Shown one piece after another: positions 153 to 22,537 of a stretch of DNA of 22,924 nucleotides. The DNA lies in assembly GCA_038150265.1 (NCBI GenBank), contig JAYOTF010000001.1, forward strand, positions 190,790 to 213,713. Direction: 5' to 3'. Under the pieces are notes generated by a model. That model was not told where the DNA came from, made no database searches, and worked only from the letters and a program-made list of their open reading frames with translations. Every line of letters begins with the position of its first letter. Position 1 is the stretch's first letter. Position numbers and translations under genes: made by a program. The DNA comes from Deltaproteobacteria bacterium (lineage in GTDB: Bacteria; SAR324; NAC60-12).

Positions 153-2921
153 ATGAGTGCCATTACCTTTCAGCCAGCGAGCGCTTGGCAGCAGCAGTTT
201 ACCTTCGATTCCGTCAAGTGCCTGATTGTATGCCGAGGCCCCATTCGGTTGGAGACGATCGATGTCTTTGAATCGCTGGGAGCCGAGTGCGGGATTTTGC
301 TTTCAGAGAAGGACAGCATCCTCTACCCCCAGACGCTGGCTCCCGAGCTGCGCAGGCTCCGGAACCGGCACCAGCAGGTTCACCACGTTCCGGACTACAT
401 TGGCACCACCCGGGAAGAGCGGGTGGCGCGGATGGAGCAGATTGTCGACATTGCGCTGGGCAATGGCTACACCCACGTGTTTGCCGGGTACGGCTTCATG
501 GCAGAAGATGCGGAGTTTGTGCAGCGGATTGAAAACGCGGGCCTCTCGTTTGTGGGACCCAACTCGTCGGTGATCCGGAACGCGGGCTCGAAGGATGAGG
601 CCAAGCAACTGGCCCGTCGGCTTGGGGTCTCGGTGACTCCGGGGGAGGATCGCATTACCGCCCGGACGTTGCTGCAGAAGGCTCCGGGCGACGCCCAGGC
701 GTTTCTCCGGGAGCAGGTGGCTCAGCATGAACTGCAGCCGGCTTCCGGATGGGATCAGGGGGAGTTGATTGACCAGGCGGAAGCGGTGCTGCAGGCGTCG
801 TATCAGAAGCGGGTGGACCTCTTTTCCATGGAAGAGCTGCAGCAGGAAACAGAGCGCTGCGTAGGAGAGATCTGGAAGGACAACCCCGGAAAGCGCATCC
901 GCCTCAAGCACATCGGCGGCGGCGGCGGCAAGGGCCAGCGGGTGGTCTCCCAGCCAGAAGAAGTGGCGGAGGCCGTGAAGGCGGTCCTCATTGAATCCCG
1001 AGCAACTGGGGTCGGCGACAACAAGACGTTTCTGGTTGAGCTGAACATCGAAAATACCCGGCACAACGAAGTCCAGCTGCTGGGGAACGGCGAGTGGTGC
1101 CTGGAGCTCGGAGGCCGCGACTGCTCCCTGCAGATGCACGAACAGAAGCTGCTGGAAGTGTCGCTGACCGAAGAATTGCTGGAAACCGAGATTGCCCGTT
1201 ATGAAGCACAGGGCGACCCCGGCAAGGTCAAGGTGCTGCGCCGGGATCTGGAGATGGTCCAGGCGATGTGCCAGCAGGCAGCAGATTTTGGCTCTGCCAT
1301 TGGGCTGGATTCTGCCTCGACCTTCGAGTGCATTGTCGAAGACGACCGGCACTACTTCATGGAGGTCAATACCCGCATTCAGGTTGAACACCGGGTCACC
1401 GAAATGGCGTACTCCCTCAAGTTTGTCAACCCGGAGGATCCGGAAGACTTCTTCACCACGGAATCACTGGTTGCAGCGATGCTCCTCATTGCCTGCCACG
1501 GCAAGCAGCTGCCCAAGCCCGAACGGGTGCAGCGGCATGTATCAGGAGTGGAGGCCCGCATCAACGCCACCAATCCGGCGCTCAAGCCGCATGCCGGCGG
1601 CATCCTGAGGTTCTGGAGCGAGCCCACCGAATTGGAGCTGCGAGACGACCAGGGCATCGGCCTGCGGAATCCGGACACCAACCTCTTGCAGCCCTACAAC
1701 CTGGCCGGGGCTTACGACTCCAACGTTTCCCTCTCCGTGACCTGGGGGGGCACCCGCCAGGAAAGCTTTGAACGACTCGCCGAGGTGCTGCGCACCACAG
1801 AAGTCCGTGGGACGGACCTCCACCTCAACATGGATTTTCACTATGGCCTGCTCTACTGGCTCATGGGCAACGACTCCATGGTGAAACCCAACACCCGGTT
1901 TGTGCAGGCCTACCTCGCGCTGGCTGGGAAGATGAAGCATGAGGCCAACTCCCTCAGCCTCGAGATTGCCTGGGAGGCGATGCGGCAGAACGTTCTCAAG
2001 GAACAGGGCCCCGACAGCGTTGCTCTCTTTGAAGCCAAGCAGACCCTGATCCTCCGGCCCCTGAAGCGGTTGCTGGAGAACGCGCACCTGCTGATGGGCT
2101 GGCTGGCGCCTCGTCCGGTCCGGCGCTGGAACTTTGGCGCCGACTTCTTTACCTGGAAGCTGAACCCGCTGGAGGTGCTGGCCAGCCTGTACCACTACCT
2201 CCGCCTGGAGGAGCATGCCAACACCCCTCCGAGTGAGCAGATCTGGAAAGACGACCAGGAGCTGCTTCAGCGCGGGCTGAGCTTTTACACGAATCTGCAG
2301 GAACGCCTGGGGACGGCAAACTGGGAAGAGCTGTGTGCGCAGCTCAAGGCCCCTGCTGCACCGGCCGGGTTTGAGGCGGCAGGTGATCCGGCCGACCTGT
2401 GGGAGCAGGTGCAGGCGGCTCACACCGGGTTCCAGCTGGGGTTGGCGTTGCTGCAGCTTCCGGTGGCGCTGGGACGCTTTGCAGGCTACTACGAGTTCCG
2501 GGGCACTGAAACCCTGGACGTCGAGGTTCCGGAAGAGTTTCAGAAGGGAGATCAGGTGGAGGACTACCTGACAGCGCTCGCGCCTCCGCCTCCGGCAGCA
2601 AGCGACGAAGTCCTGGCCTGGACGGGTGGAACCTTCTACTCGAAGGAGACCCCGGAAGCCGAGGATTACGTTCAGGAGGGAGATCATGTGGACGTGGGCG
2701 ATGTGTTGGGGTTGCTTGAGGTCATGAAGATGTTCAACCCCATCCGCGCGGAATTTTCCGGAACCATCCGGGAGGTCTGTGTCCGCGGAGACGGAGGACA
2801 GGTGGTGGCCCGGGGCCAGAAGCTCTTTCAGGTGGACCCTGATGTGGCTCTGGTTCAGGAGTCTGAGGCGGAGAAGACGGCTCGTGAGCGGGCAGCGACC
2901 GAACGGCTGCTGTTCTGGTAA
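153..2921 (+). CDS. Long-form biotin carboxylase fused to biotin carboxyl carrier protein (acyl-CoA carboxylase alpha-type subunit)
   Basis: ATP-grasp BC motifs GYGFMAE, GGGGGKG, RDCSLQ..QKL, FMEVNTRIQVEH, EARINA; C-terminal biotinylation motif EVMKM. No carboxyltransferase domain. ATG 153 preferred over TTG 144. Confidence 0.9.
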   Translation: MSAITFQPASAWQQQFTFDSVKCLIVCRGPIRLETIDVFESLGAECGILLSEKDSILYPQTLAPELRRLRNRHQQVHHVPDYIGTTREERVARMEQIVDIALGNGYTHVFAGYGFMAEDAEFVQRIENAGLSFVGPNSSVIRNAGSKDEAKQLARRLGVSVTPGEDRITARTLLQKAPGDAQAFLREQVAQHELQPASGWDQGELIDQAEAVLQASYQKRVDLFSMEELQQETERCVGEIWKDNPGKRIRLKHIGGGGGKGQRVVSQPEEVAEAVKAVLIESRATGVGDNKTFLVELNIENTRHNEVQLLGNGEWCLELGGRDCSLQMHEQKLLEVSLTEELLETEIARYEAQGDPGKVKVLRRDLEMVQAMCQQAADFGSAIGLDSASTFECIVEDDRHYFMEVNTRIQVEHRVTEMAYSLKFVNPEDPEDFFTTESLVAAMLLIACHGKQLPKPERVQRHVSGVEARINATNPALKPHAGGILRFWSEPTELELRDDQGIGLRNPDTNLLQPYNLAGAYDSNVSLSVTWGGTRQESFERLAEVLRTTEVRGTDLHLNMDFHYGLLYWLMGNDSMVKPNTRFVQAYLALAGKMKHEANSLSLEIAWEAMRQNVLKEQGPDSVALFEAKQTLILRPLKRLLENAHLLMGWLAPRPVRRWNFGADFFTWKLNPLEVLASLYHYLRLEEHANTPPSEQIWKDDQELLQRGLSFYTNLQERLGTANWEELCAQLKAPAAPAGFEAAGDPADLWEQVQAAHTGFQLGLALLQLPVALGRFAGYYEFRGTETLDVEVPEEFQKGDQVEDYLTALAPPPPAASDEVLAWTGGTFYSKETPEAEDYVQEGDHVDVGDVLGLLEVMKMFNPIRAEFSGTIREVCVRGDGGQVVARGQKLFQVDPDVALVQESEAEKTARERAATERLLFW

Positions 2922-3054
2922 AGTGGCGAGAATTTCGCATGGCTGAGGAAAAGCAGGGACCGATTTGCGTGGGTCCACAGAATGACAATGCCAATGCGTG
3001 CTGGAGTCGGCTCAGGGAGTCACTCGAGAACGGCGCGGTTCAAGGAGATGATGA

Positions 3055-4932
3055 ATGAGTCCCGTTAAGCGTATCCTCAGTTTGGGCCTGTGCCTGCTCC
3101 CGCTGGTGGGGTGGGCCCAGAGCAAGCCCCAAGCCGAAGGACGGTGGTATGCCGTTCAGCCCCAGCAAATGCGCTCGGTGGCTGCGGATGCCGTACTGGA
3201 GCACATGCGAGCCACCGGAGGCGTGGAGGACTTCTACCGCATCCCCCCTCAGGAGATCGACTGGTTGACCGAGATGGCCACTGTGGAGCAGGACTGGAAG
3301 GTGGAGCTGCAAAACCGCGAAGGCCGCTACCGTGAGGCCCTGAACGAAGTCATCCTCAGCCAGATCAAGCGCCGGAACTGGGAGATGCTCCGCAAGCAGT
3401 ACAATGACGCCATCACCACGCTCAAGCGACACATTGGCACCCTGAACCGGCAGCTGGCTGAGATTGACAAGGAGGAGAAGGACTACCTGGTGGGCCTGGA
3501 CCAGCTGACCATGACGGCGCTGGTGGCCGTCCGGGTGCCGTACACGGAAGACCTCCCGGCTCGTCTCAAGCAGCAGAACCTGGGCGACCAGATCTTCGCC
3601 GGCTCTGCCCGGGTGGCGCAGGCCCACCTGAAGGACGAGTACTCGGCTCGGGTGGTGGTTCCCTTCCAGTCCGGAGTGCTGCGGACCACTTACCTCTACC
3701 CCGAAAACATCTCCCGCTTTGATGCCGATGCGGGGGAGTACGTGTACCTCTTCCATGCCGTCGAGATCAGCCCGTTTGCACGCGCTGCGGCGACCACGCT
3801 TGACTCGCCGACTCAGTCGGAAGCGGCGATCCGCATCTTCAGCACCGCCGAGGAGGTCCGGAATTACCTCCAGCAGGAACGGGTGGGAGACCAGCGGTTG
3901 CTGAACTGGGCACAGGGCGAGCTGGCGTACCAGTCGATGCAGAACGACCACACCATTGAGCAGGTCGTCTCCCGCCTCGACTACTTCCAGATGCGCCGAC
4001 GCGGTCCCCGCCAGATGATCCAGCAGACGCTGGATCAGATCCGGGAGCTGGAGAAGCAGCGGGACAGCCTTCCGGACGATAGCGCCCTGGAGGAAAAGCT
4101 CACGGCACTCAAGCAGGCCGAGATCGCCTACCGTCAGCACTACGCCACCCGCGTGGTTCCCGGGTACGAAAAGTACACCATGGAGTACGACATGATGTAC
4201 TTCAGCAATAAACCGGCTCAGGGGGTGAAGAAATCGGTGCCGGTGGTGAAGTCGACCCAGGGCAAGGGGGAGGCTCTCATTGAGTTGCCCATCAACAGCC
4301 GCAAGCTGCAGGACATCTACCGCGACATGCTGGACTCCGCCTTTACGCGCAAGGGAGCCCTGGAGGTGAGCGACGAGCAGCCCATCTATCGGGTGAATGA
4401 CGACCTCAGCGGGATGGAAGAGGGCAAGCTGCGCTGGAAGGTGGCGTCTCAGGAGTTCCAGATCCTCAAGATTGCTCGTGGCAACATTGGCTCCCGGAGC
4501 CAGTACGCGCTCCACCTGGCGACGCGTGCGAACCTCCAGAGCAATCCCCAGTTCCCGCCCCGCCGTTATGGCACCTGTGACTACACGGTTTATTTCGGTG
4601 GACAGGACTACACGCTGGACGAAGAAGACCGGCGGACCCTGGAAAAAGCGGTTGCCTGCCTGCGTCGGTTCTCCCGGCAGCCCGTGGAGATCGTGGGACA
4701 CACCGACCACCGGCAGGTCCGGAACGAGACAGCAGGTGTGGACAACAACGTGAAGCTCGGGATGCTCCGGGCAACGACGGTGTTTGACTACTTTGCGTCA
4801 CGAGGCTTCAACTCCCGGCGTTTTGAGGTCTCCAGCATGGGAGCCCGCCAGCCGGCTGTGCGCGCCAAGAATGAAGACGACCTGAGCAAGAACCGCCGGG
4901 TCCGGATTCTGTCTCTGCCCCCGAAGCGCTGA
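3055..4932 (+). CDS. Secreted protein with predicted coiled coils and a C-terminal OmpA-like peptidoglycan-binding domain
   Basis: AGGAG RBS at 3043-3047; Sec signal peptide MSPVKRILSLGLCLLPLVGWA; C-terminal VEIVGHTD...N..LG..RA..V...G...P......NRRV motifs of OmpA_C-like domains. Confidence 0.8.
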   Translation: MSPVKRILSLGLCLLPLVGWAQSKPQAEGRWYAVQPQQMRSVAADAVLEHMRATGGVEDFYRIPPQEIDWLTEMATVEQDWKVELQNREGRYREALNEVILSQIKRRNWEMLRKQYNDAITTLKRHIGTLNRQLAEIDKEEKDYLVGLDQLTMTALVAVRVPYTEDLPARLKQQNLGDQIFAGSARVAQAHLKDEYSARVVVPFQSGVLRTTYLYPENISRFDADAGEYVYLFHAVEISPFARAAATTLDSPTQSEAAIRIFSTAEEVRNYLQQERVGDQRLLNWAQGELAYQSMQNDHTIEQVVSRLDYFQMRRRGPRQMIQQTLDQIRELEKQRDSLPDDSALEEKLTALKQAEIAYRQHYATRVVPGYEKYTMEYDMMYFSNKPAQGVKKSVPVVKSTQGKGEALIELPINSRKLQDIYRDMLDSAFTRKGALEVSDEQPIYRVNDDLSGMEEGKLRWKVASQEFQILKIARGNIGSRSQYALHLATRANLQSNPQFPPRRYGTCDYTVYFGGQDYTLDEEDRRTLEKAVACLRRFSRQPVEIVGHTDHRQVRNETAGVDNNVKLGMLRATTVFDYFASRGFNSRRFEVSSMGARQPAVRAKNEDDLSKNRRVRILSLPPKR

Positions 4933-4959
4933 ACCGAACAAGCCACCTTTTGAGTTTTT

Positions 4960-5022: not shown

Positions 5023-5541
5023 ATGGCGCTTCTTGAGATCTATACCTTTCCCAATCCGATTCTGAAACAAACGGCTCAGCCGGTGACGGTGTTTGATGAC
5101 ACGCTCCGGGAGACCGCTGCTTCCATGCTGGAGACCATGTATGCCTCCAGCGGCATTGGCCTGGCCTCCATCCAGGTGGGCCTTCCGAAGCAGCTGGTGG
5201 TGGTAGACATCATGGCGGGCTCTGAAGATCCGGAGGACTTTGAGCCCCGTGTCTTTGTGAATCCCCAGATTGTGGAGCGACGTGGGGAGACCATCTCGGA
5301 AGAAGGCTGCCTCAGCGTGACCGAGTTCCGTGCCGAGGTGAAACGCGCCGAGTGGATCCGCCTGGAGTATCAGGATGTGGAAGGAACCCCCCAGGTGCTG
5401 GAAGCCGACGGCCTCCTGGCGATTTGCATTCAGCACGAGCTGGATCACCTCAACGGCGTCCTCTTCATTGATCACCTGCCGCCGATCAAGCAGAAGATGG
5501 TCAAGAAACGCCTCTCCAAACTTGCTGCGCAGGCCGCCTGA
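5023..5541 (+). CDS. def: Peptide deformylase
   Basis: All three PDF motifs: GIGLA, EGCLS, QHELDHLNG; GAGG RBS upstream. Confidence 0.97.
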   Translation: MALLEIYTFPNPILKQTAQPVTVFDDTLRETAASMLETMYASSGIGLASIQVGLPKQLVVVDIMAGSEDPEDFEPRVFVNPQIVERRGETISEEGCLSVTEFRAEVKRAEWIRLEYQDVEGTPQVLEADGLLAICIQHELDHLNGVLFIDHLPPIKQKMVKKRLSKLAAQAA

Positions 5542-5978
5542 TGTCTCGACTGCTGGGACTCCTGCTCCTGCTGGTTCTTTCCGGCTCTCCGATCTGGGCG
5601 TTTGAGTACGCCCAGGGACGCGTCACCACGCCCTCCGGCGCGACCATCCGGGTCCAGATCGCAGACACACCAGAGAAGCGCGCCCTGGGGCTGGGAGAGC
5701 GCGACCAGCTTGCCGAGGGCACCGGCATGCTCTTTGTCTTTAACCAAAATGAGCGCCACTCCTTCTGGATGAAGGGCATGCGCTTCCCCCTCGACATCCT
5801 CTGGATCCACAACCAGCGCATTGTGCATGTGGCCCAGAATGTTCCGCCTCCTGCCTCCGGAGAGCGCCCCGTCACCGTAGAACCGCAAGCGGCTGCCAAC
5901 TTTGTGTTGGAGATCCCTGCCAACACCTCCGCCTCCCTCGGCCTCCGGGTGGGCGAGTCTGTCGAGCTCGAGTTTTAG
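5541..5978 (+). CDS. DUF192-family exported protein
   Basis: Signal peptide; ADTPEKRALGL, GMLFVF, FWMKGMRFPLDILWI and VLEIPA motifs typical of DUF192; TGATG overlap with the def stop. Confidence 0.85.
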   Translation: MSRLLGLLLLLVLSGSPIWAFEYAQGRVTTPSGATIRVQIADTPEKRALGLGERDQLAEGTGMLFVFNQNERHSFWMKGMRFPLDILWIHNQRIVHVAQNVPPPASGERPVTVEPQAAANFVLEIPANTSASLGLRVGESVELEF

Positions 5979-6178
5979 CTCGACGCCCCCGATTTTTTCT
6001 TTCCGCAACGGACTTCTTACGCGATTCTTCCGGATTTCCGGGAAATCGACGCCCTTCGCTTTTTTCAAAATAGTTTTCTTCTGAAGTGATAAATCTGCCC
6101 GAATTGGGGAGAGAATCGGTGATGAGTTTATCATCCTGGCCGAGAAAAGGTGAATTCTCTTGGGTGAGATCGGGTAAA

Positions 6179-6293: not shown

Positions 6294-7598
6294 ATGAGAA
6301 TTGCCATCATTGGCACCGGCATTTCCGGAATGACGGTCGCGCACCTGCTCCACGCGGACCATGACCTGACCATCTTTGAGGCAGGAGCGTATGTCGGAGG
6401 ACACACCAACACGGTGGAGGTCGAGAGAAACGGAAGCGTGTATGCCGTGGACACGGGCTTCATTGTCCACAACGACTGGACCTACCCGCATTACATGAAG
6501 CTGCTGGATCAGATTGGGATTGAAGCGCTCGATACAGAAATGAGCTTCAGCGTTTCCAACGAAATCACGGGTTTGGAGTACAACGGACACACGCTGGACA
6601 CGCTCTTTGCGCAGCGGCTGAACCTGGTCCGGCCTTCGTTTTGGGGCATGATCCGGGAGATCCTGCGCTTCAATCGCGAGGTGGTGGAGCATGAGCCGGA
6701 GGTGGGAGAGATGCGGCTCAAGGATTACCTGGAGCAGCACCAGTACTCGGCCCTGTTTCAGGAGAATTACATTGTGCCGATGGCAGCAGCCATCTGGTCG
6801 GCCAGCACCCGGCAGATTCAGGACTTTCCGATGCGGACCTTCATCCGGTTCTTCCGGAACCACGGCCTGCTGAACGTCAGCAACCGTCCGCAGTGGCGGG
6901 TGATCCGCGGAGGCTCTCAGGCCTACATGCAGCAGCTGGTGGCGCCCTTTCGGCAGAAGATCCGGCTGCAGAGTCCGGTATTGGGAATCCGCCGGTTCCC
7001 GACACATGTCGAGGTGCAGACCGAGTCTGGGCGGGAACGCTTTGACGCCCTGGTGGTGGCAACGCACAGCGACCAGGCCCTGGCGATGCTGCAGGATCCC
7101 ACCTCCGCAGAGCACGAAATCCTGGGCAGCATTCCCTATCAGGCGAATGAGGCGGTGCTTCACGAAGACACCAGCCTGATGCCCCGTCGCCGCAAGGCCT
7201 GGGCGAGCTGGAACGTCCGCATCACGCCTGAGCTTCAGGAGCACCCGGAGCATCCGGTGGCCGTGACGTACAACATGAACATCCTCCAGCACCTCAATCC
7301 TGCGCAGCCCTTTTTGGTGACGCTGAACGAGGGGAGCCGCATTGATCCGGACAAGGTGATCAAGCGCATCCAGTATGCGCACCCGGTGTTCACCGATGCA
7401 GGCGTCCGTGCGCAGCGTCGGCACGCCGAGATCAACGGCACCAACCGGACCTACTACTGTGGCGCTTACTGGCGCTATGGCTTCCATGAAGACGGTGTCA
7501 TCAGTGGCCTCCGGGTGGCCGAGTACTTTGGCAAGTCGCTTGATGGCGACATCCCGGTGCGCTTGCCGGATGTCGAAGTGCTCAAGGCCAGCGCATGA
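6294..7598 (+). CDS. FAD-dependent oxidoreductase of the amine-oxidase-like family found with DUF1365/cfa genes (UfaD-like candidate fatty-acid desaturase)
   Basis: N-terminal [11 protein letters not shown] and [32 protein letters not shown] and [12 protein letters not shown] motifs; gene context. Confidence 0.85.
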
Positions 7599-8374
7599 AG
7601 AGCGCCCTGTACAAAGGATGGGTGCGGCACCGACGCTTTGCCCCCCGGGAGCACACCTTCCGCTATCCGGTGTTCATGACGTACCTGGACCTGAGCGAGC
7701 TGGAAGCCGCCTTTACGGTGTCTCCGCTGTGGTCGCTGAAGAAGCGGGCGCCGGTTCGGTTCCGTCGGGAAGACTTCCATGGAGATCCCACGCTTCCTTT
7801 GGAAGAGGCGGTCCGGAACACCGTCTCCGAGCGCCTTGGCTTCCGTCCGGAAGGTCCGGTGCGGCTGCTGGCGAACCTCCGGTGCCTCGGACTCGTCTTC
7901 AACCCGGCTTCGTTTTACTACTGCTTTGGGAAAGACGGAGAAACCGTTGAGGCCCTGGTGGTGGAGGTGACCAACACCCCTTGGGGGGAGCGGCATGCCT
8001 ATGTGCTGGATCACCGGCGCCCAACGGGGTCTCGGCGCCGGATGCACTTCGAATTTTCCAAAGTCTTTCATGTCTCTCCCTTCATGGAGATGGACCACGT
8101 CTACCACTGTGATTTTACCCTGCCGGAGCGAGCGCTGACGGTGCACATGGAAAATCATCAACACGGTCAGCGAAAGTTTGATGCCACCTTGACGCTCAAG
8201 CGTCAGGAGTGGACGACTTCCAACTTGAATCGCGCCCTGGTGCAGTTTCCCTGGATGACTGCTCAGGTGCTGGGAGGTATTTACTGGCAAGCCCTGCGTC
8301 TGTGGCTCAAACGCCTGAAGTACCAACCCCATCCGGGAGGCCTGGTGCCTCCTGCTTCATCTCCAACTACCTAA
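7595..8374 (+). CDS. DUF1365 family protein (UfaO-like candidate)
   Basis: [38 protein letters not shown] and [11 protein letters not shown] motifs; ATGA overlap with the upstream gene. Confidence 0.9.
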
Positions 8375-14027: not shown

Positions 14028-15500
14028 ATGGAACATTACGATTTGTGTGTGATTGGAGGAGGACCCTCCGGATATGCGGCTGCGATGCGTGCCGTGGATT
14101 ATGGGAAGAAGGTGCTGCTGCTGGAGCGCAACCGTGTGGGGGGAGCCGGCATCTACAACGGAGCCCTTTCGTCCAAAACCTTCTGGGAGCTTTCGCAGAG
14201 TGTGGCCACCATGCACCGCCAGCTCAGCAGCTTTGGGGTGGAGGTTCCGAAGATCCACTTCGGCAGCATCCTCAAGGAAGTCGACGATGCCGTCTTTGAG
14301 CGCTCCTCGCAGCTGGAAGACCACTTGCGTCGGGTGGAAAAGGAAAGCAACGGGCAGTTTCGCTTTGTGCGTGGCTCCGGACGCCTGCTGAATCCAAACG
14401 AGGTGGAGGTCCGGGGGGACTTCGATCCGTTTGTCATTCAGGCCGACCACACCATTGTGGCCACCGGAAGCCGCCCCCGTCCGCTTCCGCATGTGCCGAT
14501 TGACGAGCGCACCATCATGACGAGCGACGGCATTGGCTCGCTCCGGGAGGTCCCGGAGAGCATCGTCATTGTGGGAGCGGGGGTCATTGGCTGTGAATTT
14601 GCCACCATCTTCTCGGCATTCGGACGCACCGAGGTGCGCCTGATTGCCCGCGATGACCACATCCTTCCCTTTGAAGACCGCGATCTGTCGCGCGTCATTG
14701 AAGAGAACATGGAGGCCAACGGCGTGCTCATCCACCGCAACGCGAGCCTGGTGTCCATGGACATCATCCACGGACGCGCTCACTACGTCATCTCGTATCC
14801 GGACGGCAGCGAAGAGGCCTTTGAGGCAGAGAAGGCCCTCATCTCGATTGGCCGGATCCCGAACATCGAGAACACCGGCCTGAAGGAGCTTCAGGTGAAC
14901 CTCGACCGAGGCGGCTGCGTCGATGACGAAGACACCCAGACCAACATCTCCAACATCTACGCCGTTGGCGACATGACGGCCGACATCGCCCTCGTCAACG
15001 TCGGAGAGCTGGAAGGGCGCCATGCGGTGGAGCGCATCTTCGGAAATGCTCAGAACAAGCTGATCTACGAAAACATCTCCACCATCATGTTCCTGAGTCC
15101 GGAAGTCGCCGGGGTGGGCATGAACGAGCAGCAGGCTCAGAAGGCAGGCATTCCCTACCGTGTGGCCAGCTTCGACTTCCGCTGCATTCCGCGGGCGGTC
15201 GCCATGCGTCGCACCCAGGGCTTCTTCAAGATTCTGGTGACCGATGATGACGAGATGCGCATCCTCGGCATGCGGGCGCTGGGGGAGCACGCGTCCTCGG
15301 CGATCCAGGCGGTGGCGCTGCTCATCTCCATGAACAAGGGCATTGACGAGCTGGCGGAGCTGATTCACCCCCACCCGTCCATCATTGAAGGCATTCAGGA
15401 GTGCGTCCGGATGCTCCTTGGAAAGTCCATCTACAAGCCGGCCATCTTCAGCGAGATGCTGCGGCTGCAAAGCTGGAAAGACGGCCACTACGCCTCTTGA
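14028..15500 (+). CDS. Class I pyridine nucleotide-disulfide oxidoreductase homolog (Lpd/SthA-like) lacking the redox-active cysteines
   Basis: YDLCVIGGGPSG, ATGSRP, GAGVIGCE, IGRIPN, IYAVGD and C-terminal HPHPSIIEG motifs; GGAGIYNGALSSK replaces GGxCxxxGCIPSK. ATG 14028 chosen because the ORF-track start at 13836 overlaps kynU and adds a non-homologous leader. Confidence 0.85.
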   Translation: MEHYDLCVIGGGPSGYAAAMRAVDYGKKVLLLERNRVGGAGIYNGALSSKTFWELSQSVATMHRQLSSFGVEVPKIHFGSILKEVDDAVFERSSQLEDHLRRVEKESNGQFRFVRGSGRLLNPNEVEVRGDFDPFVIQADHTIVATGSRPRPLPHVPIDERTIMTSDGIGSLREVPESIVIVGAGVIGCEFATIFSAFGRTEVRLIARDDHILPFEDRDLSRVIEENMEANGVLIHRNASLVSMDIIHGRAHYVISYPDGSEEAFEAEKALISIGRIPNIENTGLKELQVNLDRGGCVDDEDTQTNISNIYAVGDMTADIALVNVGELEGRHAVERIFGNAQNKLIYENISTIMFLSPEVAGVGMNEQQAQKAGIPYRVASFDFRCIPRAVAMRRTQGFFKILVTDDDEMRILGMRALGEHASSAIQAVALLISMNKGIDELAELIHPHPSIIEGIQECVRMLLGKSIYKPAIFSEMLRLQSWKDGHYAS

Positions 15501-16393
15501 CCCCGGTGATTGGTCTCGACTGGGGGACCACGTCGCTCCGGGCGTACCGCCTCCTGCCTTCAGGGGAGGTGGCAGAGGCTCGCTCTGCGCCTCAGGGCAT
15601 TCTGCAGGTTCCGGCCGGCGGCTTTGAAGCCGTCCTGCTGAACCTGGTGGGCGACTGGATCACCCCCAACGTGCCGGTGCTGGCCTCCGGAATGGTGGGG
15701 AGCCGTCAGGGCTGGGTGGAGACGCCCTACCTCCCGCTGCCCTGCAGTCCGGAAGCGCTGGCTGATCACCTGGTTCCCGTTCCGCTGCAGCAGGGCGGCA
15801 CCGTGCATGTGGTCCCGGGGGTGCAGTACGCAAACCCGCAGGGGCGCATGGACGTGATGCGGGGCGAAGAGACCCAGGCCCTGGGCACAACGCTGAACAC
15901 GGGGCTCCTGATCCTTCCGGGCTCGCACAGCAAGTGGGTGCAGGTGCAGGACGGCCTCTTGAAAAAGCATATCACCTTTCTAACAGGGGAGCTGTTTGCG
16001 GCACTGCACCAGCACACCCTGTTGGGGCGTCTGATGACAGCGACCGATCCGCATGAAGCCGCCTTTGCCCAGGGCGTCCGGGACGGGCTGGCGCCGGCAG
16101 CCGGCTCAGGAGGGCTGCTGCACCAGCTGTTTGAGGTCCGGACTTTGGGGCTGTTTGAGCAGCTTCCGGGTGAGGGCCTGTATGACTACCTCTCCGGGTT
16201 GCTCATGGGGACCGAAATTCGAGAAGCCTGCGCCGCATTTCCAGAGGCAACCGAGCGGCGGGTGGTGGGGGCCAGCGCCTTGAGCAAACGGTACCTGCAG
16301 GCGCTTGCGCTAGCGGGCCTCTCGGCGGTTGCGGAGCCTCCTGATGCGGCTGCGCGCGGACTGTTCCGCCTGGCTCAGCTCCGGAAGCCCTGA
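15497..16393 (+). CDS. dgoK: 2-dehydro-3-deoxygalactonokinase
   Basis: DWGTTSLRA, SGMVGSRQGW.E.PY, DVMRGEETQ, PGSHSKW, TGELF and LSGLL.G.E motifs. TTG 15497 overlaps the upstream TGA; GTG 15506 is an alternative start. Confidence 0.9.
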   Translation: MTPVIGLDWGTTSLRAYRLLPSGEVAEARSAPQGILQVPAGGFEAVLLNLVGDWITPNVPVLASGMVGSRQGWVETPYLPLPCSPEALADHLVPVPLQQGGTVHVVPGVQYANPQGRMDVMRGEETQALGTTLNTGLLILPGSHSKWVQVQDGLLKKHITFLTGELFAALHQHTLLGRLMTATDPHEAAFAQGVRDGLAPAAGSGGLLHQLFEVRTLGLFEQLPGEGLYDYLSGLLMGTEIREACAAFPEATERRVVGASALSKRYLQALALAGLSAVAEPPDAAARGLFRLAQLRKP

Positions 16394-16423: not shown

Positions 16424-17194
16424 ATGACACAAGCTGTGTATCCGGACCTGAAGGACCGTGTGGTGTTGGTGAGCGGAGGTGCCACCGGCATTGGAGCGGC
16501 CATTGTGGAGGCGTTTGTGGAGCAGGGCAGCCACGTGGCCTTCCTGGACCTTCAGGAGCAGGCGGGCAAGGAGTGGGCGTCTCAGCTCTCGGTCCGGGAG
16601 GTCGGTCCCTCGCCCCTGTTCGTGCACGTTGACCTGACGGATCCGGAAGCCATTCGGCACGCGGTGAAGCAGGTGGAAGACTGGTTTGGGCCCATCCGGG
16701 TGCTGGTGAACAATGCGGCCAACGACGAACGGCATGAGCCGAACGCGGTGACGCCGGAGTACTGGGAGGAGTGCCTGCGCCGGAACCTGAACCACTACTT
16801 TTACCTGGCCCAGGCGGTTTATGATAAGATGGCGGCTTCCGGAGGAGGCTCCATCATGAACATGGGCTCCGTGAGCTGGCGGATGGCCCAGGGCAACATG
16901 CCCGGCTACACCACCGCAAAGGCCGCGGTGGAGGGCCTGACCGTCAGCCTGGCACGAGCCTATGGCCCCCAGCAGATCCGGGTGAATTGCATTGTGCCGG
17001 GGTCGGTTCCCACCGAGCGGCAGATCCGGGAAGTCCTCACGCCGGAGGAGCGGCAGTTTTTAGTGGAGCACCAGTGCCTGCCTGGGGTGATCACGCCCCA
17101 GGACCTGGCGCAGATGGCGCTCTTTTTGGGCTCGGATGTGAGCCGTTTTTGTACGCGGGGCATCTATACCGTCGATGCTGGGCTGGGTGCCTAG
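16424..17194 (+). CDS. Short-chain dehydrogenase of the XylB/GalD aldose 1-dehydrogenase type (probable D-galactose or pentose dehydrogenase)
   Basis: YPDLKDRVVLVSGGATGIG, NNAANDERH, S..YTTAK catalytic residues, IRVN...PG...TERQ. GAGG RBS favours ATG 16424; ATG 16409 is the alternative. Confidence 0.8.
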   Translation: MTQAVYPDLKDRVVLVSGGATGIGAAIVEAFVEQGSHVAFLDLQEQAGKEWASQLSVREVGPSPLFVHVDLTDPEAIRHAVKQVEDWFGPIRVLVNNAANDERHEPNAVTPEYWEECLRRNLNHYFYLAQAVYDKMAASGGGSIMNMGSVSWRMAQGNMPGYTTAKAAVEGLTVSLARAYGPQQIRVNCIVPGSVPTERQIREVLTPEERQFLVEHQCLPGVITPQDLAQMALFLGSDVSRFCTRGIYTVDAGLGA

Positions 17195-17234: not shown

Positions 17235-18293
17235 GTGTCAGTGATTCAATTTGACCCCAAGGACCACCCGCATCGCCGTTACAACCCGCTGACCGGCCAG
17301 TGGATTCTGGTCTCCCCGCACCGGGCCAAGCGCCCCTGGAGCGGCAAGAATGAAGCCCCTTCCGGGGGCGAGCTCCCCAGTTACGATCCTCAGTGTTTCC
17401 TGTGTCCCGGCAATGCGCGCATCTCCGGAGAACACAACCCTGCCTACACGGAGACCTTCGTCTTCACCAACGACTTTGGGGCGCTTCTGCCCACAACGCC
17501 TCCTGCTCCCGATTCCGGCCACTCGCTGTTTCAGCTCGAGAGCGTCCGGGGGGTGAGCCGCGTCATCTGCTTCTCTCCCGACCACAGCAAAACGCTTCCG
17601 GAGCTGCCCCTGTCAGCGATCCGCAACGTGATTGCCACCTGGGAGCAGGAGATCCAGACCCTGTCGCAGGATTACCCGTGGGTGATGGTCTTTGAGAACA
17701 AGGGCGAGGTCATGGGGTGCTCCCAGCCGCATCCGCACGGACAGGTGTGGGCCAACAGCTTTCTGCCCAACGAGATTGAGCGCAAGGACCAGCTGCTCCG
17801 GAGCTACTTTGACGCGCAGGGCACCAACCTGCTCGTGGACTATGCGCAGGCCGAGTTGGCCGATGGGGCCCGGACGGTGCTGGAAACCGAGCACTGGCTG
17901 GCCGTGGTGCCGTGGTGGGCCGCGTGGCCCTTTGAGACGATGCTCCTGCCCAAGGCTCCGGCTCAGCGCTTCAGTGACCTGACGGACCCGCAGCGGGACG
18001 ACCTGGCCGACGCCCTCAAGCGCCTGACCACGCGGTACGACAACCTCTTCGAGTGCTCCTTCCCCTACTCCATGGGCTGGCACTTTGCGCCGTTCCTTCC
18101 GGAAGGAACCGACTTGCGCCACTGGCAGCTGCACGCCCTGTTCTACCCTCCCCTGCTGCGGTCGGCCACCGTCCGGAAGTTCATGGTGGGCTACGAAATG
18201 CTGGCCGAGCCACAACGCGACCTTACTCCGGAACAGGCGGCTGACCGCCTCCGGGTCCTCAGCGAGCAACACTACAAACAGGCTGGATCATGA
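17235..18293 (+). CDS. galT: UDP-glucose--hexose-1-phosphate uridylyltransferase
   Basis: [45 protein letters not shown] (catalytic HPH), [20 protein letters not shown] start. Confidence 0.97.
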
Positions 18294-19444
18294 CCGCTTT
18301 AACCGAAACCGTTGTCTCATTTTTTGAATCCAGCTATGGCGAATCTCCAGGCCGCGTGTTCCGGGCTCCCGGACGCGTGAACCTGATTGGCGAGCACACC
18401 GACTACAACGAAGGCTTTGTGCTGCCCTGTGCCATTGACTACGAAACGGTGATCGCCGCAAGGGTCCGGGACGACCAGTGGGTCCGGGTGGTCTCTGCCG
18501 ACTACCCCGGAGAGCGAGACGAGTTCAGCCTGCAGGCGCCGATTGTGTTTCAGGACGACCGCCTCTGGGTCAACTACGTCCGGGGGGTGGTGCAGTCGCT
18601 GCTGCAGGCGGGCCTGACACTCGGTGGGGTGGACCTGGCGATTCAGGGCAACATTCCGCAAGGAGCCGGACTCAGTTCGTCGGCGTCACTCGAGGTGGCT
18701 GTGGGCCAGACCTTCAAGGAACTCTTCAACCTGCCGCTGACGCAGACGGATCTGGCGCTGCATGGGCAGCACGCCGAAAACGACTTTGTGGGCTGCAACA
18801 GTGGCATCATGGATCAGCTCATTTCGGCAGAAGGGAAGCAGCACCACGCCTTGCTGATTGACTGCCGGTCGCTGGAAACCCGGCCCGTCTCCATGCCTGA
18901 GGATTTTGTGGTGGTCATCATCAACTCCAACAAAAAGCGTGGGCTGGTGGACAGCTACTACAACCAGCGTCGCGAGCAGTGCGCTCAGGCGGCCGCCGTG
19001 CTGGAGGTGTCGGCGTTGCGAGAGGTGTCGCTGGAGGTCTTTGAGCAGAAGCAGCACCTGCTGGAAGCCGTCCATGCCCGCCGTGCCCGCCACGTGATCT
19101 CGGAAAACGCCCGGACGGAACAGGCGGCCGAGGCGCTCGCACAGGGAGACCTGAAGCGGATGGGCGAGCTGATGGCGGAGTCGCACGCGTCGATGCGGGA
19201 CGACTTTGAGATCACGGTTCCGGAAGTGGACGAGTTGGTGACGATTGTGAAGGAGGTCGTTGGCCCGCGAGGGGGCGTCCGGATGACCGGAGGGGGCTTT
19301 GGCGGGTGCATTGTGGCGCTGGTGCCTCCGGACTGCGTGGAGCCGGTTCGGGAAGCCGTAGCGGCCCAGTACCAGGCCCGGACGGGGCTGAAGGAGTCCT
19401 TTTACGTCTGTCACGCCTCGGCGGGCGCCGGACCGGTCGCGTAA
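18290..19444 (+). CDS. galK: Galactokinase
   Basis: [29 protein letters not shown] and [14 protein letters not shown]-kinase motifs; ATGA overlap with galT. Confidence 0.97.
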
Positions 19445-19524
19445 ACGCAGCGACCAACCCTAATCGCTCCCTCACAGAACCTGAACCCGGGGAGGCTACG
19501 CTTGAGGGGCCTGAAACAGGCAAC

Positions 19525-19625: not shown

Positions 19626-19823
19626 CCTCCTCCTTTCCCCTGCTCCTCTGCTGACCGCTTCCTGTCGGCACACGGCGCCAGCGCCCCCTGGGCACCACGC
19701 TGGAACCGAATCGTAATTCTCCAAAAACGTATCCTGAACACGAGGGCCTTACTGTGGAACGCTTCCAGCTCCTCCGTTGGAGTTTCGTTTCCGTGAATCA
19801 ACCCTTTTTGGATATGGTGAAGA

Positions 19824-20432
19824 ATGAAAAGCTTCCTGGATGCGCTTCGTGAACAACGCTGGGACGACCACCGGTTTTATCATCAGAGCCGGATCAATCA
19901 GTCTCTGCACCTGGTGAGCGCCATCAGCTTCGTGTGTGTCTACGTCCTCATTTTTACAGATCCGGTGCTGGCGGCTCTGGTGGGGTGGCTCTTCTCGATG
20001 GTGACCCGGCAGGTGGGGCACTTCTTCTTTGAGCCCAAGGAGTATGACCAGGTGAACGCTGCGACGCATGAGTACAAGGAGTCGATCAAGGTGGGCTACA
20101 ACCTGTTCCGCAAGGTCATCCTCATGGGGATCTGGGTGGCCACGCCGGTGGTGCTCTACTTCGATCCGACCTTCCTGGGACTCTTTGAGCCCTACGCAGA
20201 CACCTACGGGTTCCTGCACAGCATGTCCGTGCTCTGGATCTCGGTAGGCGTGGGCGCGGTGCTGTTCCGGATGGTCCACCTGTTCTTCCTGCAGGGGGTG
20301 CAGGCCGGAGTGGTCTGGGTGACCAAGATCCTCACCGATCCGTTCCACGACATCATGCTCTACTGGAAATCGCCGTTTTACCTGCTGCGCGGGGAGCTGC
20401 TGGACCCGATGTACGACGTCCGGCACGCCTGA
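19824..20432 (+). CDS. Mpo1/DUF962-like integral membrane protein
   Basis: DDHRFYHQSRINQSLH (H..N..LH pattern) and RQVGHFFFE (Q.GH..E) match the Mpo1/DUF962 His signature; several hydrophobic segments. Confidence 0.65.
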   Translation: MKSFLDALREQRWDDHRFYHQSRINQSLHLVSAISFVCVYVLIFTDPVLAALVGWLFSMVTRQVGHFFFEPKEYDQVNAATHEYKESIKVGYNLFRKVILMGIWVATPVVLYFDPTFLGLFEPYADTYGFLHSMSVLWISVGVGAVLFRMVHLFFLQGVQAGVVWVTKILTDPFHDIMLYWKSPFYLLRGELLDPMYDVRHA

Positions 20433-20447
20433 GCCTGGGGCCGACGG

Positions 20448-21347
20448 GTGGAAAAATCGCCGGACCGCCTGTGTGGGTGGACGGAGTCCGGAACCTGGTA
20501 TCACCGAGAAGGTCGCCCGGATCAGCCGCTGCTGCTGCTGATTCATGGCGCCACGGTGCCGTCCTGGGAGTTCGACCGCCTGGTGCCGCATTTCCACAAG
20601 TCCGGATGGCAAACCCTGCGCTTTGACCTCCTGGGGCACGGACAGTCCGCGCGTCCGGAGGGGCCCTACACGCTGGACGCGTTGGTGGAGCAGGCGGAGG
20701 AACTGCTTCGGGTTTTGGAAGTCCGGGGGCCTGTCGGGATCCTGGGGCACTCGCTCGGAGCGGTGATTGCCACAGCGCTGGCTCAGCGGCTTCCGGGGCA
20801 GGTGGGCGCCTTGATTCTGGTGGCACCGATGCTGGACTTCATGGGCGAGCAACCCTGGTCGCGCCTGCTGCAGGCCGAGCCGTGGGGGCTCTGGCTGATG
20901 AGGGGGCTGGTGATTCCGCTGCTGAAGCGTCGCCGCAAGCGACGGTATGAGGCGATTGGGGCTCCAGAGCTGGCGGCCCGGTTTGAGGAGCAGCTGGCGC
21001 GTCCCGGATTCGACCGGGCCCTGCTTTCTCTCTTTCAGAATCAAACCCTGGGCAACCAGGAAGCCGTGTACCGCTCTGGCGCGACCCTGCCGGTGGCGAA
21101 GCTGGTGGTCTGGGGCGAGGAGGACCGAGTCGTCTCGGCCGAGCAGGTGGCCGTGATCCGGGAGCAGCTGGGCCCCCACACGTTCTGTTCAGGCGCTGGC
21201 CTGGAGCACAACCTCCTGCTGACGCATTCCGCGTGGGTGTCGTCGGTGATGCTTGCGTTTCTGCAGGAGTCCCCCCTCTTGAGACGTCATGATGGAACAA
21301 CCCCTGTACCTGATTCTGCTGGCTGCCCTGGCGCTGTTCTCCACTGA
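20448..21347 (+). CDS. Alpha/beta fold hydrolase
   Basis: LLLIHG, FDLLGHGQS, nucleophile elbow GHSLG, WGEEDRVV (Asp) and LEHNL (His); GTG start. The last ~22 codons may be an extension (see findings). Confidence 0.85.
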   Translation: MEKSPDRLCGWTESGTWYHREGRPDQPLLLLIHGATVPSWEFDRLVPHFHKSGWQTLRFDLLGHGQSARPEGPYTLDALVEQAEELLRVLEVRGPVGILGHSLGAVIATALAQRLPGQVGALILVAPMLDFMGEQPWSRLLQAEPWGLWLMRGLVIPLLKRRRKRRYEAIGAPELAARFEEQLARPGFDRALLSLFQNQTLGNQEAVYRSGATLPVAKLVVWGEEDRVVSAEQVAVIREQLGPHTFCSGAGLEHNLLLTHSAWVSSVMLAFLQESPLLRRHDGTTPVPDSAGCPGAVLH

Positions 21348-21450
21348 AATCCGACACCTGAGCCGCCTGATGAACTGCCCCCCTCGGTTCTTTGCGCTGG
21401 TCCTGCTGGCGTCTTCTCTCTTCCTGGTGGGGTGCCTCTCCGGAATCTGA
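21289..21450 (+). CDS. Small 53-aa protein with two hydrophobic segments, absent from the ORF track
   Basis: MMEQPLYLILLAALALFSTEIRHLSRLMNCPPRFFALVLLASSLFLVGCLSGI*; CTG-rich codon usage like the neighbours; fills the gap up to the convergent MDR stop at 21476. Confidence 0.55.
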   Translation: MMEQPLYLILLAALALFSTEIRHLSRLMNCPPRFFALVLLASSLFLVGCLSGI

Positions 21451-21475
21451 ACCCCTGCTTCCCAAACGTCCGGAT

Positions 21476-22537
21476 TCAGGTGCCGCTGGAGGGCATGGAA
21501 ATGACCAGCTTGCCGAGGTGCTGCTTCGTGGCAAACTGTGCCTGCGCCTGAGGCACCTCCTGGAGGGAGAAGGTCTGGTCCACCAACGGCTGAAGCTCGC
21601 CGGCTTCAAGGCGCCGGATGAGGTTGGGGAAGACTTCCGGATTGATCATGGTGCCGCCGAACAGGGTGAGGTCCTTGAGGTAGAGGGTCCGCAGGTCCAG
21701 CTCCACCAGGGGACCGGCAATGGCGCCGGAGGTGGCATAGCGACCAAATGGCTTCAGCACCTCCAGCAGGTCGGGCCACCGTTTGCCACCGACCACATCC
21801 ACCACCACGTCCACCGCGTTTCTTCCCAACTCCTGAATCAGCGGCGCGTCCCGCTCCAGCACCTGCTCCGCTCCCACTTCCAGCAAGCGAGCCGCCTTGG
21901 GCGGAGAGGCCACCGCGATGACGTGGGCCCCGCGGGCTCGGGCCAACTGCACGGCTGCCGACCCGACGCCTCCGGAAGCTCCGGTTACCAAAACGCGCTC
22001 TCCGGACTGGACCTGGGCCCGGGTCAGGAGGTTCTCCGCTGTGGAGTAGGAACACGGGAAGGAGGCCAGTTCCACATCCGTGAGGGTGCTGCGGATGGGG
22101 TGGGCGTGCCGTGCTGCAACCACGGTGTACTCCGCAAAGGCGCCATCGCAGTCGGAACCGAAGTACCAGGGTGGGTCCAGCTCCTGACCTCCGGCTTCAA
22201 ACAGGCAGGGCTCCACCAGCACGCGGGCGTTCTGGAGCGCCGGATCCACCTCTTTTCCCCAAGCGACCACCCGGCCACAGGCATCCGCTCCCTGAATGAG
22301 CGGAAACGGAATGGCGGTTCCCGTCCAACTGGCGTCGCTGCTGCTGTGGTCTGATTTGGAGTACCAGCCCAGCCGGGTGTTGAGGTCCGTGTTGTTGACA
22401 GCGGCCGCATGAACCTGAATCAGGACCTCCCGAGGCCCAGGGGTGGGCACCGGAAGGTCTGCTCGGAACACCAGCTTTTCCGGACCTCCGTGTCCGGTCA
22501 GCTGAACCGCTTTCATGAGTTTGGGGAGGGAGCGCAT
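21476..22537 (-). CDS. Medium-chain dehydrogenase/reductase (zinc-binding ADH family, quinone-oxidoreductase-like)
   Basis: MKAVQLTGHGGPE, AAAVNNTD, QGADACGRVV, DGAFAEY, VLVTGASGGVGSA and GKLVI motifs; classic catalytic-Zn C/H ligands absent. Start at 22537 or 22516. Confidence 0.88.
   Translation of the reverse strand: MRSLPKLMKAVQLTGHGGPEKLVFRADLPVPTPGPREVLIQVHAAAVNNTDLNTRLGWYSKSDHSSSDASWTGTAIPFPLIQGADACGRVVAWGKEVDPALQNARVLVEPCLFEAGGQELDPPWYFGSDCDGAFAEYTVVAARHAHPIRSTLTDVELASFPCSYSTAENLLTRAQVQSGERVLVTGASGGVGSAAVQLARARGAHVIAVASPPKAARLLEVGAEQVLERDAPLIQELGRNAVDVVVDVVGGKRWPDLLEVLKPFGRYATSGAIAGPLVELDLRTLYLKDLTLFGGTMINPEVFPNLIRRLEAGELQPLVDQTFSLQEVPQAQAQFATKQHLGKLVISMPSSGT

Follow-up and report, generated by a model that had tools for sequence, protein, structure and literature searches.

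What makes one six-base palindrome, TCCGGA, recur through a stretch of ordinary metabolic genes? The window considered here (the whole stretch of DNA analysed, 22,924 bp at 61.2% guanine plus cytosine (GC); G000:C1:190790-213713) holds exactly 67 copies where base composition predicts 7.6, an 8.9-fold excess, the first at 358 and the last at 22479. TCCGGA is the top-ranked hexamer of the window, and the second palindrome, CTGCAG, occurs 29 times. An initial annotation of the same DNA had counted about 67 copies by hand against an expectation of about 8, and had proposed that the word behaves like a highly iterated palindrome (HIP), the class exemplified by HIP1 of cyanobacteria. From the full G000 assembly (3.39 Mb in 87 contigs, largest 214 kb, completeness 97.8%) and its relatives we arrive at a reading to which we give a probability of roughly 55%: TCCGGA is a lineage-specific HIP-like motif read by a putative oligomeric DNA-binding factor, and a cause in cytosine-5 (C5) methylation or very-short-patch repair is unlikely.

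Across G000 the word occurs 9,711 times, once per 349 bp, and is the commonest hexamer; those ranked second are about half as frequent and are themselves overlaps of TCCGGA. Its observed-to-expected ratio (O/E) is 8.67 by composition and 7.57, 3.95, 2.39 and 1.22 under Markov models of order 1, 2, 3 and 4, the last value being uninformative because TCCGGA dominates its own pentamers: on both strands together, TCCGG is followed by A in 19,422 of 36,035 cases. No other NCCGGN word exceeds 2.26-fold, and ACCGGT, GCCGGC and CCCGGG stand at 0.66-0.68. We rejected the idea that CCGG survives only beside thymine, the other NCCGGN words being merely mildly low (0.66-0.89).

An excess is also found when the proteins are held constant. 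A simple codon-usage caller, which agrees with Pfam in the window, gave 2,656 genes, of which 2,342 confident ones were used. A synonymous shuffle of these, keeping each protein and the per-gene codon usage, yields 1,954 ± 40 copies against 8,207 observed (O/E 4.2, z = 157), and by both measures TCCGGA ranks first of 4,096 hexamers. O/E by codon phase is 4.0, 3.3 and 5.2, and the choices behind it are plain: Ser-Gly pairs are written TCC-GGA in 34% of cases (8% expected), T is the last base of 68% of the codons that precede CCG-GAn (14% overall), and for an arginine flanked by nTC and Ann the codon CGG is used in 70% of cases (38% overall). Of the 19,673 positions at which the protein permits the word, 41.7% carry it. 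Even a codon-pair-preserving null, which already includes four or five of the six bases, leaves O/E at 1.61 and 1.34 in the two three-codon phases, with NCCGGA depleted when N is other than T (0.43-0.68). Outside genes the density is 2.38 per kb, and O/E is 6.9-8.2 across four intergenic size classes. The initial annotation had allowed that codon pairs, or a preference for CGG/CCG codons with no excess over other NCCGGN words, might account for the finding; neither does. Explanations from codons, amino acids or dinucleotides are refuted by the two coding nulls together with the intergenic counts. The excess is a DNA-level signal, independent of proteins or codons.

The core of the motif is the hexamer itself. 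Flanking bases add just T at -1 (1.67-fold) and A at +1 (1.64-fold), the most frequent 8-mer extension, TTCCGGAA, makes up 2,258 of the 19,422 both-strand counts, and a longer motif was rejected for the little information in these flanks. Copies are spread evenly: inter-copy spacing is near exponential (coefficient of variation 0.98), counts per 5 kb are near Poisson (mean 14.5, variance 16.4), and 106 genes of at least 600 nt are without a copy where a Poisson model expects 105.9. Density drops by half, to 1.35 per kb, within 30 bp of start codons. Operator-like arrays were rejected, as there is no cluster of at least five copies in 120 bp in G000 (3.5 expected); so were word-free islands of foreign DNA, no 5-kb window having fewer than three copies and a contig with retron and methylase genes (C45) carrying 2.99 per kb, and so was a dispersed repeat or mobile element, the DNA between close pairs being unrelated.

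Neighbouring copies are phased on the double helix. Pair distances in G000 peak at 31, 41-42, 51-52, 61-63 and 72 bp onward, with a trough at 11-17 bp, where spacings fall to 0.25 of the long-range level. The corresponding spectral component, at 10.45-10.5 bp, has a power-to-noise ratio of 48.5; 15 control hexamer words give at most 6.1 (2.9 for CTGCTG/CAGCAG, of equal copy number, and 2.9 for TCCGGG/CCCGGA), and CCGG, which is contained in TCCGGA, gives 15.3. The signal is seen in seven of eight disjoint parts of the genome, the eighth being a 190-kb remainder, and its relative amplitude, 28% at 18-100 bp, has dropped to about 6% by 300-400 bp; in-phase pairs outnumber anti-phase pairs 1,160 to 693. 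Pairs of protein-permitted positions are non-periodic (power 3.4), and in 200 random realisations of those positions the power never exceeds 6.1, where 46 is observed. A periodicity at the protein level, from amphipathic helices for example, was rejected for this reason, and the phasing depends on synonymous choices, beyond what protein sequence explains. A general rotational code in A/T or dinucleotides was also rejected: around the sites there is no 10.5-bp signal in W (A or T), AA/TT, TA, GC, CG or GG/CC.

Phasing is present in all four genomes tested, with a register that depends on the genus. G002, of the same genus as G000, shows power 9.1 at 10.4 bp over 800 kb and is in register, as is G021, of another genus and 43.6% GC (power 11.5 over 320 kb; in-phase to anti-phase 54:19). 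G051, of the genus we call g19, has power 15.2 at 10.55 bp over 793 kb, and its register is shifted by 5.1-5.4 bp, half a turn; its pairs divide 46:85 and 47:86 in two independent halves, 93:171 pooled. As a separate observation, copies in G021 are crowded at spacings of 18-36 bp, which reach 2-2.5 times the level at long range (sample L117-L136); in G000 and G051 these spacings are depleted (0.3-0.8).

We surveyed 45 species genomes of the family by the ratio of TCCGGA to AGGCCT, a control of the same composition. The ratio is 14-30 in g19 (3 genomes), mostly 4-32 in g11 (18 genomes, three of them at about 1.6), 4-6 in the own genus of G000, g1 (3), 3-8 in g4 (3), 4.6 in g6 (2), 3.8 in g3 (1), 2.6 in g10 (1), 2-2.5 in g7 (2), 1.4 in g9 (1), 1.2 in g8 (1), about 1.0 in g2 (9) and 0.9 in g5 (1). 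It exceeds 2.0 in none of 15 genomes (completeness at least 80%) of the order's one other family. Three genomes of that family, G015, G017 and G020, avoid the word (40, 133 and 37 copies against 182, 987 and 151 of AGGCCT), and their sequences carry the signature that would be expected of a TCCGGA-cutting restriction system. O/E in sampled DNA is 7.2 in G002 at 59.8% GC, 7.6 in G051 at 56.6% and 8.3 in G021 at 43.6%, as against 0.2-0.9 in g2 genomes at 49-55%; the three low-ratio g11 species, at 33-36% GC, have 1.3-2.2. The excess is independent of GC, being the same at 41% and 61%, and the trait is patchy within one family and missing from its sister. The HIP-like behaviour that the initial annotation had read from a single window is genome-wide, in all phases, on both strands and between genes, and is common to related genera.

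Site conservation between orthologs, which the initial annotation had suggested as a check, is modestly above expectation. G000 and G002 are syntenic at about 81% nucleotide identity, and share 442 copies, of 1,036 in G000 and 802 in G002; these 43-55% compare with 32% for all hexamers and 25-38% for similar words. At positions permitted in both (740 kb), a G000 copy is kept in G002 at rates of 0.46, 0.66 and 0.51 by phase, where context-free codon retention predicts 0.28, 0.37 and 0.24, i.e. at 1.6-2.1 times the expectation; where G000 is without a copy, G002 has one at 0.19, 0.14 and 0.32 of permitted positions. From these rates it follows that density is kept while positions turn over. Of the copies present in one species only, about 40% lie at amino-acid differences (414/1,005 and 254/630). 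Pairs conserved in both genomes are the most strongly phased (47:14, against 96:83 in a cross-species control). G001, taken as outgroup, is rearranged and 67-74% identical over longer matches (short fragments to 83%).

Our proposal is that an abundant, putative sequence-specific DNA-binding factor occupies TCCGGA sites. Because the site is palindromic the factor would probably be a dimer, and it would be able to touch another bound copy of itself. Many sites co-occupied in a fixed rotational setting would then be favoured, either by weak selection across the genome or by factor-directed repair, with chromosome organisation or the marking of self DNA as the likely role. Phasing carried by synonymous choices only, an exclusion zone at 11-17 bp and a genus-specific register are the traces that a sequence-specific protein in contact with another bound copy would be expected to leave. 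A bolder form is sequence-coded chromosome architecture in a family of uncultured estuarine and marine bacteria, in which a putative oligomeric protein would read TCCGGA about every 350 bp and couple neighbours rotationally, the register being flipped by half a turn between sister genera; we put this forward tentatively, at somewhat less than even odds. Among the causes offered by the initial annotation, a chromosome-organisation signal fits the 10.5-bp phasing best, and it is methylation-driven repair that lacks support from genes.

Several points weigh against a bound reader. A candidate for it was not found in G000, where there is no histone fold (PF00808), SeqA or MutH; PF09015 and PF07832 (NgoMIV- and Bse634I-like) also have no match there, though these are weak blanks, with no match in control genomes either. 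That one genus has its register shifted by half a turn is not readily explained, and selection and factor-directed biased repair are indistinguishable with these data. One 400-kb half of the G002 sample, taken alone, is without periodicity (power 0.3). Sites are only modestly conserved in position (TCCGGA ranks 253 of 1,477 hexamers), so that neutral drive could replenish much of the abundance; a single copy in register with the copy nearest to it is no better conserved than one out of register (154/395 vs 90/210, p=0.38), and the more frequent joint retention of in-register pairs is of marginal significance (47/257 vs 14/143, p=0.03). All genomes are, moreover, metagenome bins.

Of the other explanations, the one that survives best is patterned on the model of Elhai for HIP1, with TCCGGA or CCGG marked by an orphan methylase and near-matches ratcheted into full sites by methyl-directed or very-short-patch repair. 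We consider it unlikely. The word is a restriction-type palindrome, which we take to be the recognition site of BspEI, Kpn2I and AccIII. Alternate HIPs of cyanobacteria accompany a cognate methylase, according to the portions of PMC4390886 available to us. The genes that the model calls for, and that the initial annotation had suggested looking for in the form of an orphan methyltransferase and a Vsr-like gene, did not turn up among the families searched: PF00145 (C5 methylase), PF03852 (Vsr), PF02384 (type I/IIG methylase), PF02976 (MutH) and PF03925 (SeqA) have no match in G000, and a full-length C5 methylase occurs in none of the 24 genomes of g1, g19 and g11. Nor are the one-off transition neighbours, those linked to the word by deamination, depleted (O/E 1.34 for TTCGGA/TCCGAA and 2.57 for TCTGGA/TCCAGA), and helical phasing is not something the model itself predicts.

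Two PF01555-type (N4/N6-type) methylase-like genes, both with the SPPY motif, are present in G000. The first, MT-A (258 aa, C45:2844-3617), lies directly after a reverse transcriptase of retron type (469 aa; RT_XIII is its best PADLOC model, 6.4e-70) and is found in G000 and G001 only, with a fragment in G002, i.e. it is confined to one genus. The second, MT-B (G000:C51:2-1387, L002; full length in G002, L010:451-2643), is the family-conserved one: it has motif I (DPFMGGGT) and motif IV (TSPPY), preceded by an invariant THGFHxYPGRFHP ahead of motif I, matches the PADLOC type II methylase model at 1.8e-35, and occurs in 34 of the 45 family genomes, including 17 of the 24 in the three most enriched genera (g1, g19, g11), where there is no other regular PF01555 gene. 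Its N-terminus in G002 is a run of about 330 residues made up of Arg/Asp/Glu repeats, EDRPRREDRPRY-like. MT-B and the trait do not go together: its SPPY is intact in the non-enriched g2, g9 and g5, and motif IV is degenerate in the enriched g4, g6 and g3 (RPPL/RPPF, HPPL, NPPM, APPA). Its predicted fold (pLDDT 88.7) matches Trm11 tRNA m2G methylases and Dam about equally weakly (TM-score at most 0.56), and on this model its substrate may be other than DNA. We note in passing the order of genes at the MT-A locus (G000:C45:1378-4500; L001:35-3159), namely reverse transcriptase, MT-A and a 311-aa gene without Pfam or PADLOC match; the locus may represent a retron, or a defence island, in which the methylase is an unusual partner.

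A neutral, context-dependent bias of mutation or repair would make TCCGGA a mutational sink, with no factor at the finished site. Such a sink accords with the fast turnover (more than 40% of copies unshared at 81% identity), the even, Poisson-like spread, the lower density under strong translational selection (2.4 per kb in the genes of strongest codon bias vs 3.5) and the failure of single in-register copies to be better conserved. What it leaves unexplained is the 10.5-bp register, the 11-17 bp exclusion zone and the half-turn difference from genus to genus. The terminal T and A are, besides, coupled beyond codon-pair frequencies, retention exceeds the context-free expectation, and enrichment does not change with GC. 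We regard it as quite improbable.

Slim odds attach to intrinsic DNA mechanics, with TCCGGA selected as a bendable or rigid element for curvature or supercoil geometry and no sequence-specific protein. One word phased in register in two genera, and with the opposite register in another, could reflect adding versus cancelling bends, but the A/T and dinucleotide classes around the sites carry no 10.5-bp signal, same-composition or near words are unphased, and an exact six-base word appears more specific than the usual mechanical codes.

Slimmer still is the chance of a DNA uptake signal built up by biased uptake and recombination, as in the uptake signal sequences (USS) of Pasteurellaceae and the DNA uptake sequences (DUS) of Neisseriaceae. 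TCCGGA resembles these in being lineage-specific and evenly spread in genes (all frames) and spacers, possibly by molecular drive, and recent work on HIP1 reportedly ties that word to transformation and gene transfer. Six bases discriminate little, however: known uptake signals are longer and non-palindromic, USS and DUS having 9-12 bases where the conserved core here is a six-base palindrome, and to our knowledge helical phasing is not a feature of uptake signals.

Last, an artefact of composition, codon usage or amino-acid content is next to impossible: TCC, GGA, CCG and CGG are all favoured codons in G000 and the order-4 Markov model leaves just 1.22-fold, but that model is built on pentamers dominated by the word, the shuffles leave 4.2-fold and 1.3-1.6-fold, the intergenic excess is 7-8-fold, and relatives of similar GC without enrichment exist.

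The reading we prefer, a HIP-like word with a bound reader, can be set against known systems. HIP1 (GCGATCGC) and the alternate HIPs are described from cyanobacteria only in the portions available to us of Elhai 2015 (PMC4390886) and Xu, Lawrence & Durand 2018 (PMC5861425). As far as those portions go, TCCGGA is like HIP1 in being a short G+C-rich palindrome that is hyper-abundant in all frames of genes and between genes, in being clade-wide with exceptional members that are without the excess (g2 here), and in having sites conserved above expectation (modestly here); a role in nucleoid structure has been proposed for HIP1 too. The top rank, the presence in all frames and in non-coding DNA, a clade with exceptions and conserved sites are all HIP characters that TCCGGA has, and a cognate orphan methylase is the one that it does not, since there is no C5 enzyme and MT-A and MT-B do not track it. 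It differs from HIP1 in having six bases rather than eight, in belonging to a different, non-photosynthetic lineage, and in lacking a methylase that tracks it among the families searched. The same portions report excesses of 15-300 for HIP1, as against 8.7-fold here, and a periodicity of 10-90 kb, as against 10.5 bp over tens to hundreds of base pairs. Set against HIP1, the methylase link is missing, and helical phasing is an apparently new property.

The closest worked example for phased pairs is SeqA of E. coli, which acts on pairs of GATC sites that share a helical face, in what is available to us of Chung et al. 2009 (PMC2691817). We found no SeqA, no MutH and no proven DNA-active Dam-type methylase in G000, and unlike SeqA pairs, the TCCGGA pairs of g19 prefer opposite faces of the helix, those of G000, G002 and G021 being in register. 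GATC in E. coli has a density of the same order as TCCGGA here, without being strongly over-represented. The repair bias of Dcm/Vsr on CCWGG-related words is a case in which methylase-linked repair raises the count of a target word; G000 differs in that a C5 methylase and Vsr were not found in it and T:G-derived neighbours are not depleted. Restriction sites are usually avoided in host genomes, and TCCGGA, unlike such a target, is enriched 8.7-fold in G000 and avoided just in the three sister-family genomes named above.

We found no report of TCCGGA over-representation in the literature searched; the word is absent from PMC4390886 and from PMC6237814. HIPs have been without explanation for about thirty years, and the same kind of word now appears in an unrelated, uncultured lineage in which genera with and without the enrichment, and in one case species of a single genus, stand side by side in a way that suits gene-content comparison. 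The cause usually suspected, a cognate methylase, fails to follow the trait there. A genus-dependent helical register would be the footprint of a physical reader and is directly assayable. TCCGGA also shapes coding, occupying 42% of permitted positions, with amino-acid differences at about 40% of species-specific copies, and therefore matters for codon models, k-mer binning and host assignment. If the bolder form of our reading is true, bacteria would have in this word an equivalent of a positioning code. The word would also add a second case to the HIP problem, one easier to work on and independent of DNA methylation.

Within the window itself the gene content is ordinary metabolism: 17 genes, among them biotin-carboxylase-type, OmpA-domain, peptide deformylase, cyclopropane-fatty-acid (CFA) synthase, ADP-forming acyl-CoA synthetase, kynureninase, galT and galK genes, and every one of the 17 has at least one copy. 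Plus-strand genes hold 57 copies (13, 20 and 24 in the three phases), two minus-strand genes, for kynureninase and a zinc alcohol dehydrogenase (Zn-ADH), hold 7, and 3 are non-coding. The positions and codon readings given by the initial annotation were right for all three phases (GTT-CCG-GAC at 389, ATC-CGG-AAC at 574, TCC-GGA at 744), for both strands and for the intergenic copy at 6029, and the one-mismatch TCCGGN words are as abundant as it said (TCCGGG 43, TCCGGC 19, TCCGGT 19); on the other side CCCGGA occurs 23 times, GCCGGA 20 and ACCGGA 6. It had seen ACCGGT only a couple of times: the copies at 9012 and 19870 are there, and a third, at 19432, had been overlooked. Close pairs of TCCGGA are 30 or 31 bp apart, except one at 10 bp; they are marked with all other copies in the table.

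Table. The TCCGGA copies of the window, by position, with the gene that contains each, its strand and the division of the word into codons (SDR, short-chain dehydrogenase/reductase).
Position	Location	Strand	Codons	Remark
358..363	biotin-carboxylase-type gene	+	nTC-CGG-Ann	next copy 31 bp away
389..394	biotin-carboxylase-type gene	+	nnT-CCG-GAn	
574..579	biotin-carboxylase-type gene	+	nTC-CGG-Ann	
744..749	biotin-carboxylase-type gene	+	TCC-GGA	Ser-Gly
1439..1444	biotin-carboxylase-type gene	+	nnT-CCG-GAn	
1670..1675	biotin-carboxylase-type gene	+	nnT-CCG-GAn	
2528..2533	biotin-carboxylase-type gene	+	nnT-CCG-GAn	
2757..2762	biotin-carboxylase-type gene	+	TCC-GGA	
3670..3675	OmpA-domain gene	+	TCC-GGA	
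3857..3862	OmpA-domain gene	+	nTC-CGG-Ann	
4071..4076	OmpA-domain gene	+	nnT-CCG-GAn	
4718..4723	OmpA-domain gene	+	nTC-CGG-Ann	
4901..4906	OmpA-domain gene	+	nTC-CGG-Ann	
5229..5234	peptide deformylase	+	nnT-CCG-GAn	
5856..5861	DUF192 gene	+	TCC-GGA	
6029..6034	non-coding			between DUF192 and amine oxidase genes
6324..6329	amine oxidase gene	+	TCC-GGA	
6853..6858	amine oxidase gene	+	nTC-CGG-Ann	
7346..7351	amine oxidase gene	+	nnT-CCG-GAn	
7812..7817	DUF1365 gene	+	nTC-CGG-Ann	
7846..7851	DUF1365 gene	+	nnT-CCG-GAn	
8701..8706	CFA synthase gene	+	nTC-CGG-Ann	
9247..9252	CFA synthase gene	+	nTC-CGG-Ann	
9520..9525	CFA synthase gene	+	nTC-CGG-Ann	next copy 30 bp away
9550..9555	CFA synthase gene	+	nTC-CGG-Ann	
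10119..10124	acyl-CoA synthetase/GNAT gene	+	nnT-CCG-GAn	
10402..10407	acyl-CoA synthetase/GNAT gene	+	TCC-GGA	
10989..10994	acyl-CoA synthetase/GNAT gene	+	nnT-CCG-GAn	
11214..11219	acyl-CoA synthetase/GNAT gene	+	nnT-CCG-GAn	
11858..11863	acyl-CoA synthetase/GNAT gene	+	nTC-CGG-Ann	next copy 10 bp away
11868..11873	acyl-CoA synthetase/GNAT gene	+	nnT-CCG-GAn	
12132..12137	acyl-CoA synthetase/GNAT gene	+	nnT-CCG-GAn	
12473..12478	acyl-CoA synthetase/GNAT gene	+	nTC-CGG-Ann	
12638..12643	kynureninase	-	nnT-CCG-GAn	
12845..12850	kynureninase	-	nnT-CCG-GAn	
12939..12944	kynureninase	-	nTC-CGG-Ann	
14067..14072	pyridine-nucleotide disulphide oxidoreductase gene	+	TCC-GGA	
14376..14381	pyridine-nucleotide disulphide oxidoreductase gene	+	TCC-GGA	
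14798..14803	pyridine-nucleotide disulphide oxidoreductase gene	+	nnT-CCG-GAn	
15098..15103	pyridine-nucleotide disulphide oxidoreductase gene	+	nnT-CCG-GAn	
15406..15411	oxidoreductase gene end			reading-frame overlap with 2-keto-3-deoxy-galactonokinase
15686..15691	2-keto-3-deoxy-galactonokinase	+	TCC-GGA	
15748..15753	2-keto-3-deoxy-galactonokinase	+	nnT-CCG-GAn	
16137..16142	2-keto-3-deoxy-galactonokinase	+	nTC-CGG-Ann	
16380..16385	2-keto-3-deoxy-galactonokinase	+	nTC-CGG-Ann	
16441..16446	SDR gene	+	nnT-CCG-GAn	
16642..16647	SDR gene	+	nnT-CCG-GAn	
16838..16843	SDR gene	+	TCC-GGA	
17424..17429	galT	+	TCC-GGA	
17597..17602	galT	+	nnT-CCG-GAn	
17797..17802	galT	+	nTC-CGG-Ann	
18098..18103	galT	+	nnT-CCG-GAn	
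18172..18177	galT	+	nTC-CGG-Ann	
18227..18232	galT	+	nnT-CCG-GAn	
19219..19224	galK	+	nnT-CCG-GAn	
19278..19283	galK	+	nTC-CGG-Ann	
19327..19332	galK	+	nnT-CCG-GAn	
20266..20271	Mpo1-like gene	+	nTC-CGG-Ann	
20487..20492	alpha/beta hydrolase gene	+	TCC-GGA	
20601..20606	alpha/beta hydrolase gene	+	TCC-GGA	
20654..20659	alpha/beta hydrolase gene	+	nnT-CCG-GAn	
21439..21444	non-coding			next copy 30 bp away
21469..21474	non-coding			just beyond Zn-ADH stop
21636..21641	Zn-ADH gene	-	nnT-CCG-GAn	
21971..21976	Zn-ADH gene	-	TCC-GGA	next copy 30 bp away
22001..22006	Zn-ADH gene	-	TCC-GGA	
22479..22484	Zn-ADH gene	-	nnT-CCG-GAn	

We finally note some minor observations: (i) If the 2-keto-3-deoxy-galactonokinase gene is given its longest open reading frame, it shares 100 bp (window 15401-15500) with the end of the oxidoreductase gene before it; the true start probably lies further downstream. 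(ii) At least half of a 10-kb stretch is found in each of six sequencing runs, which belong to three studies and carry the label estuary or aquatic metagenome; no RNA run is listed. (iii) Some other words are strongly avoided in G000: CTAG stands at 0.048 and TATA at 0.07 of expectation, and words containing TTAA are very low after the synonymous shuffle (TTAAGG 0.04, GTTTAA 0.08).

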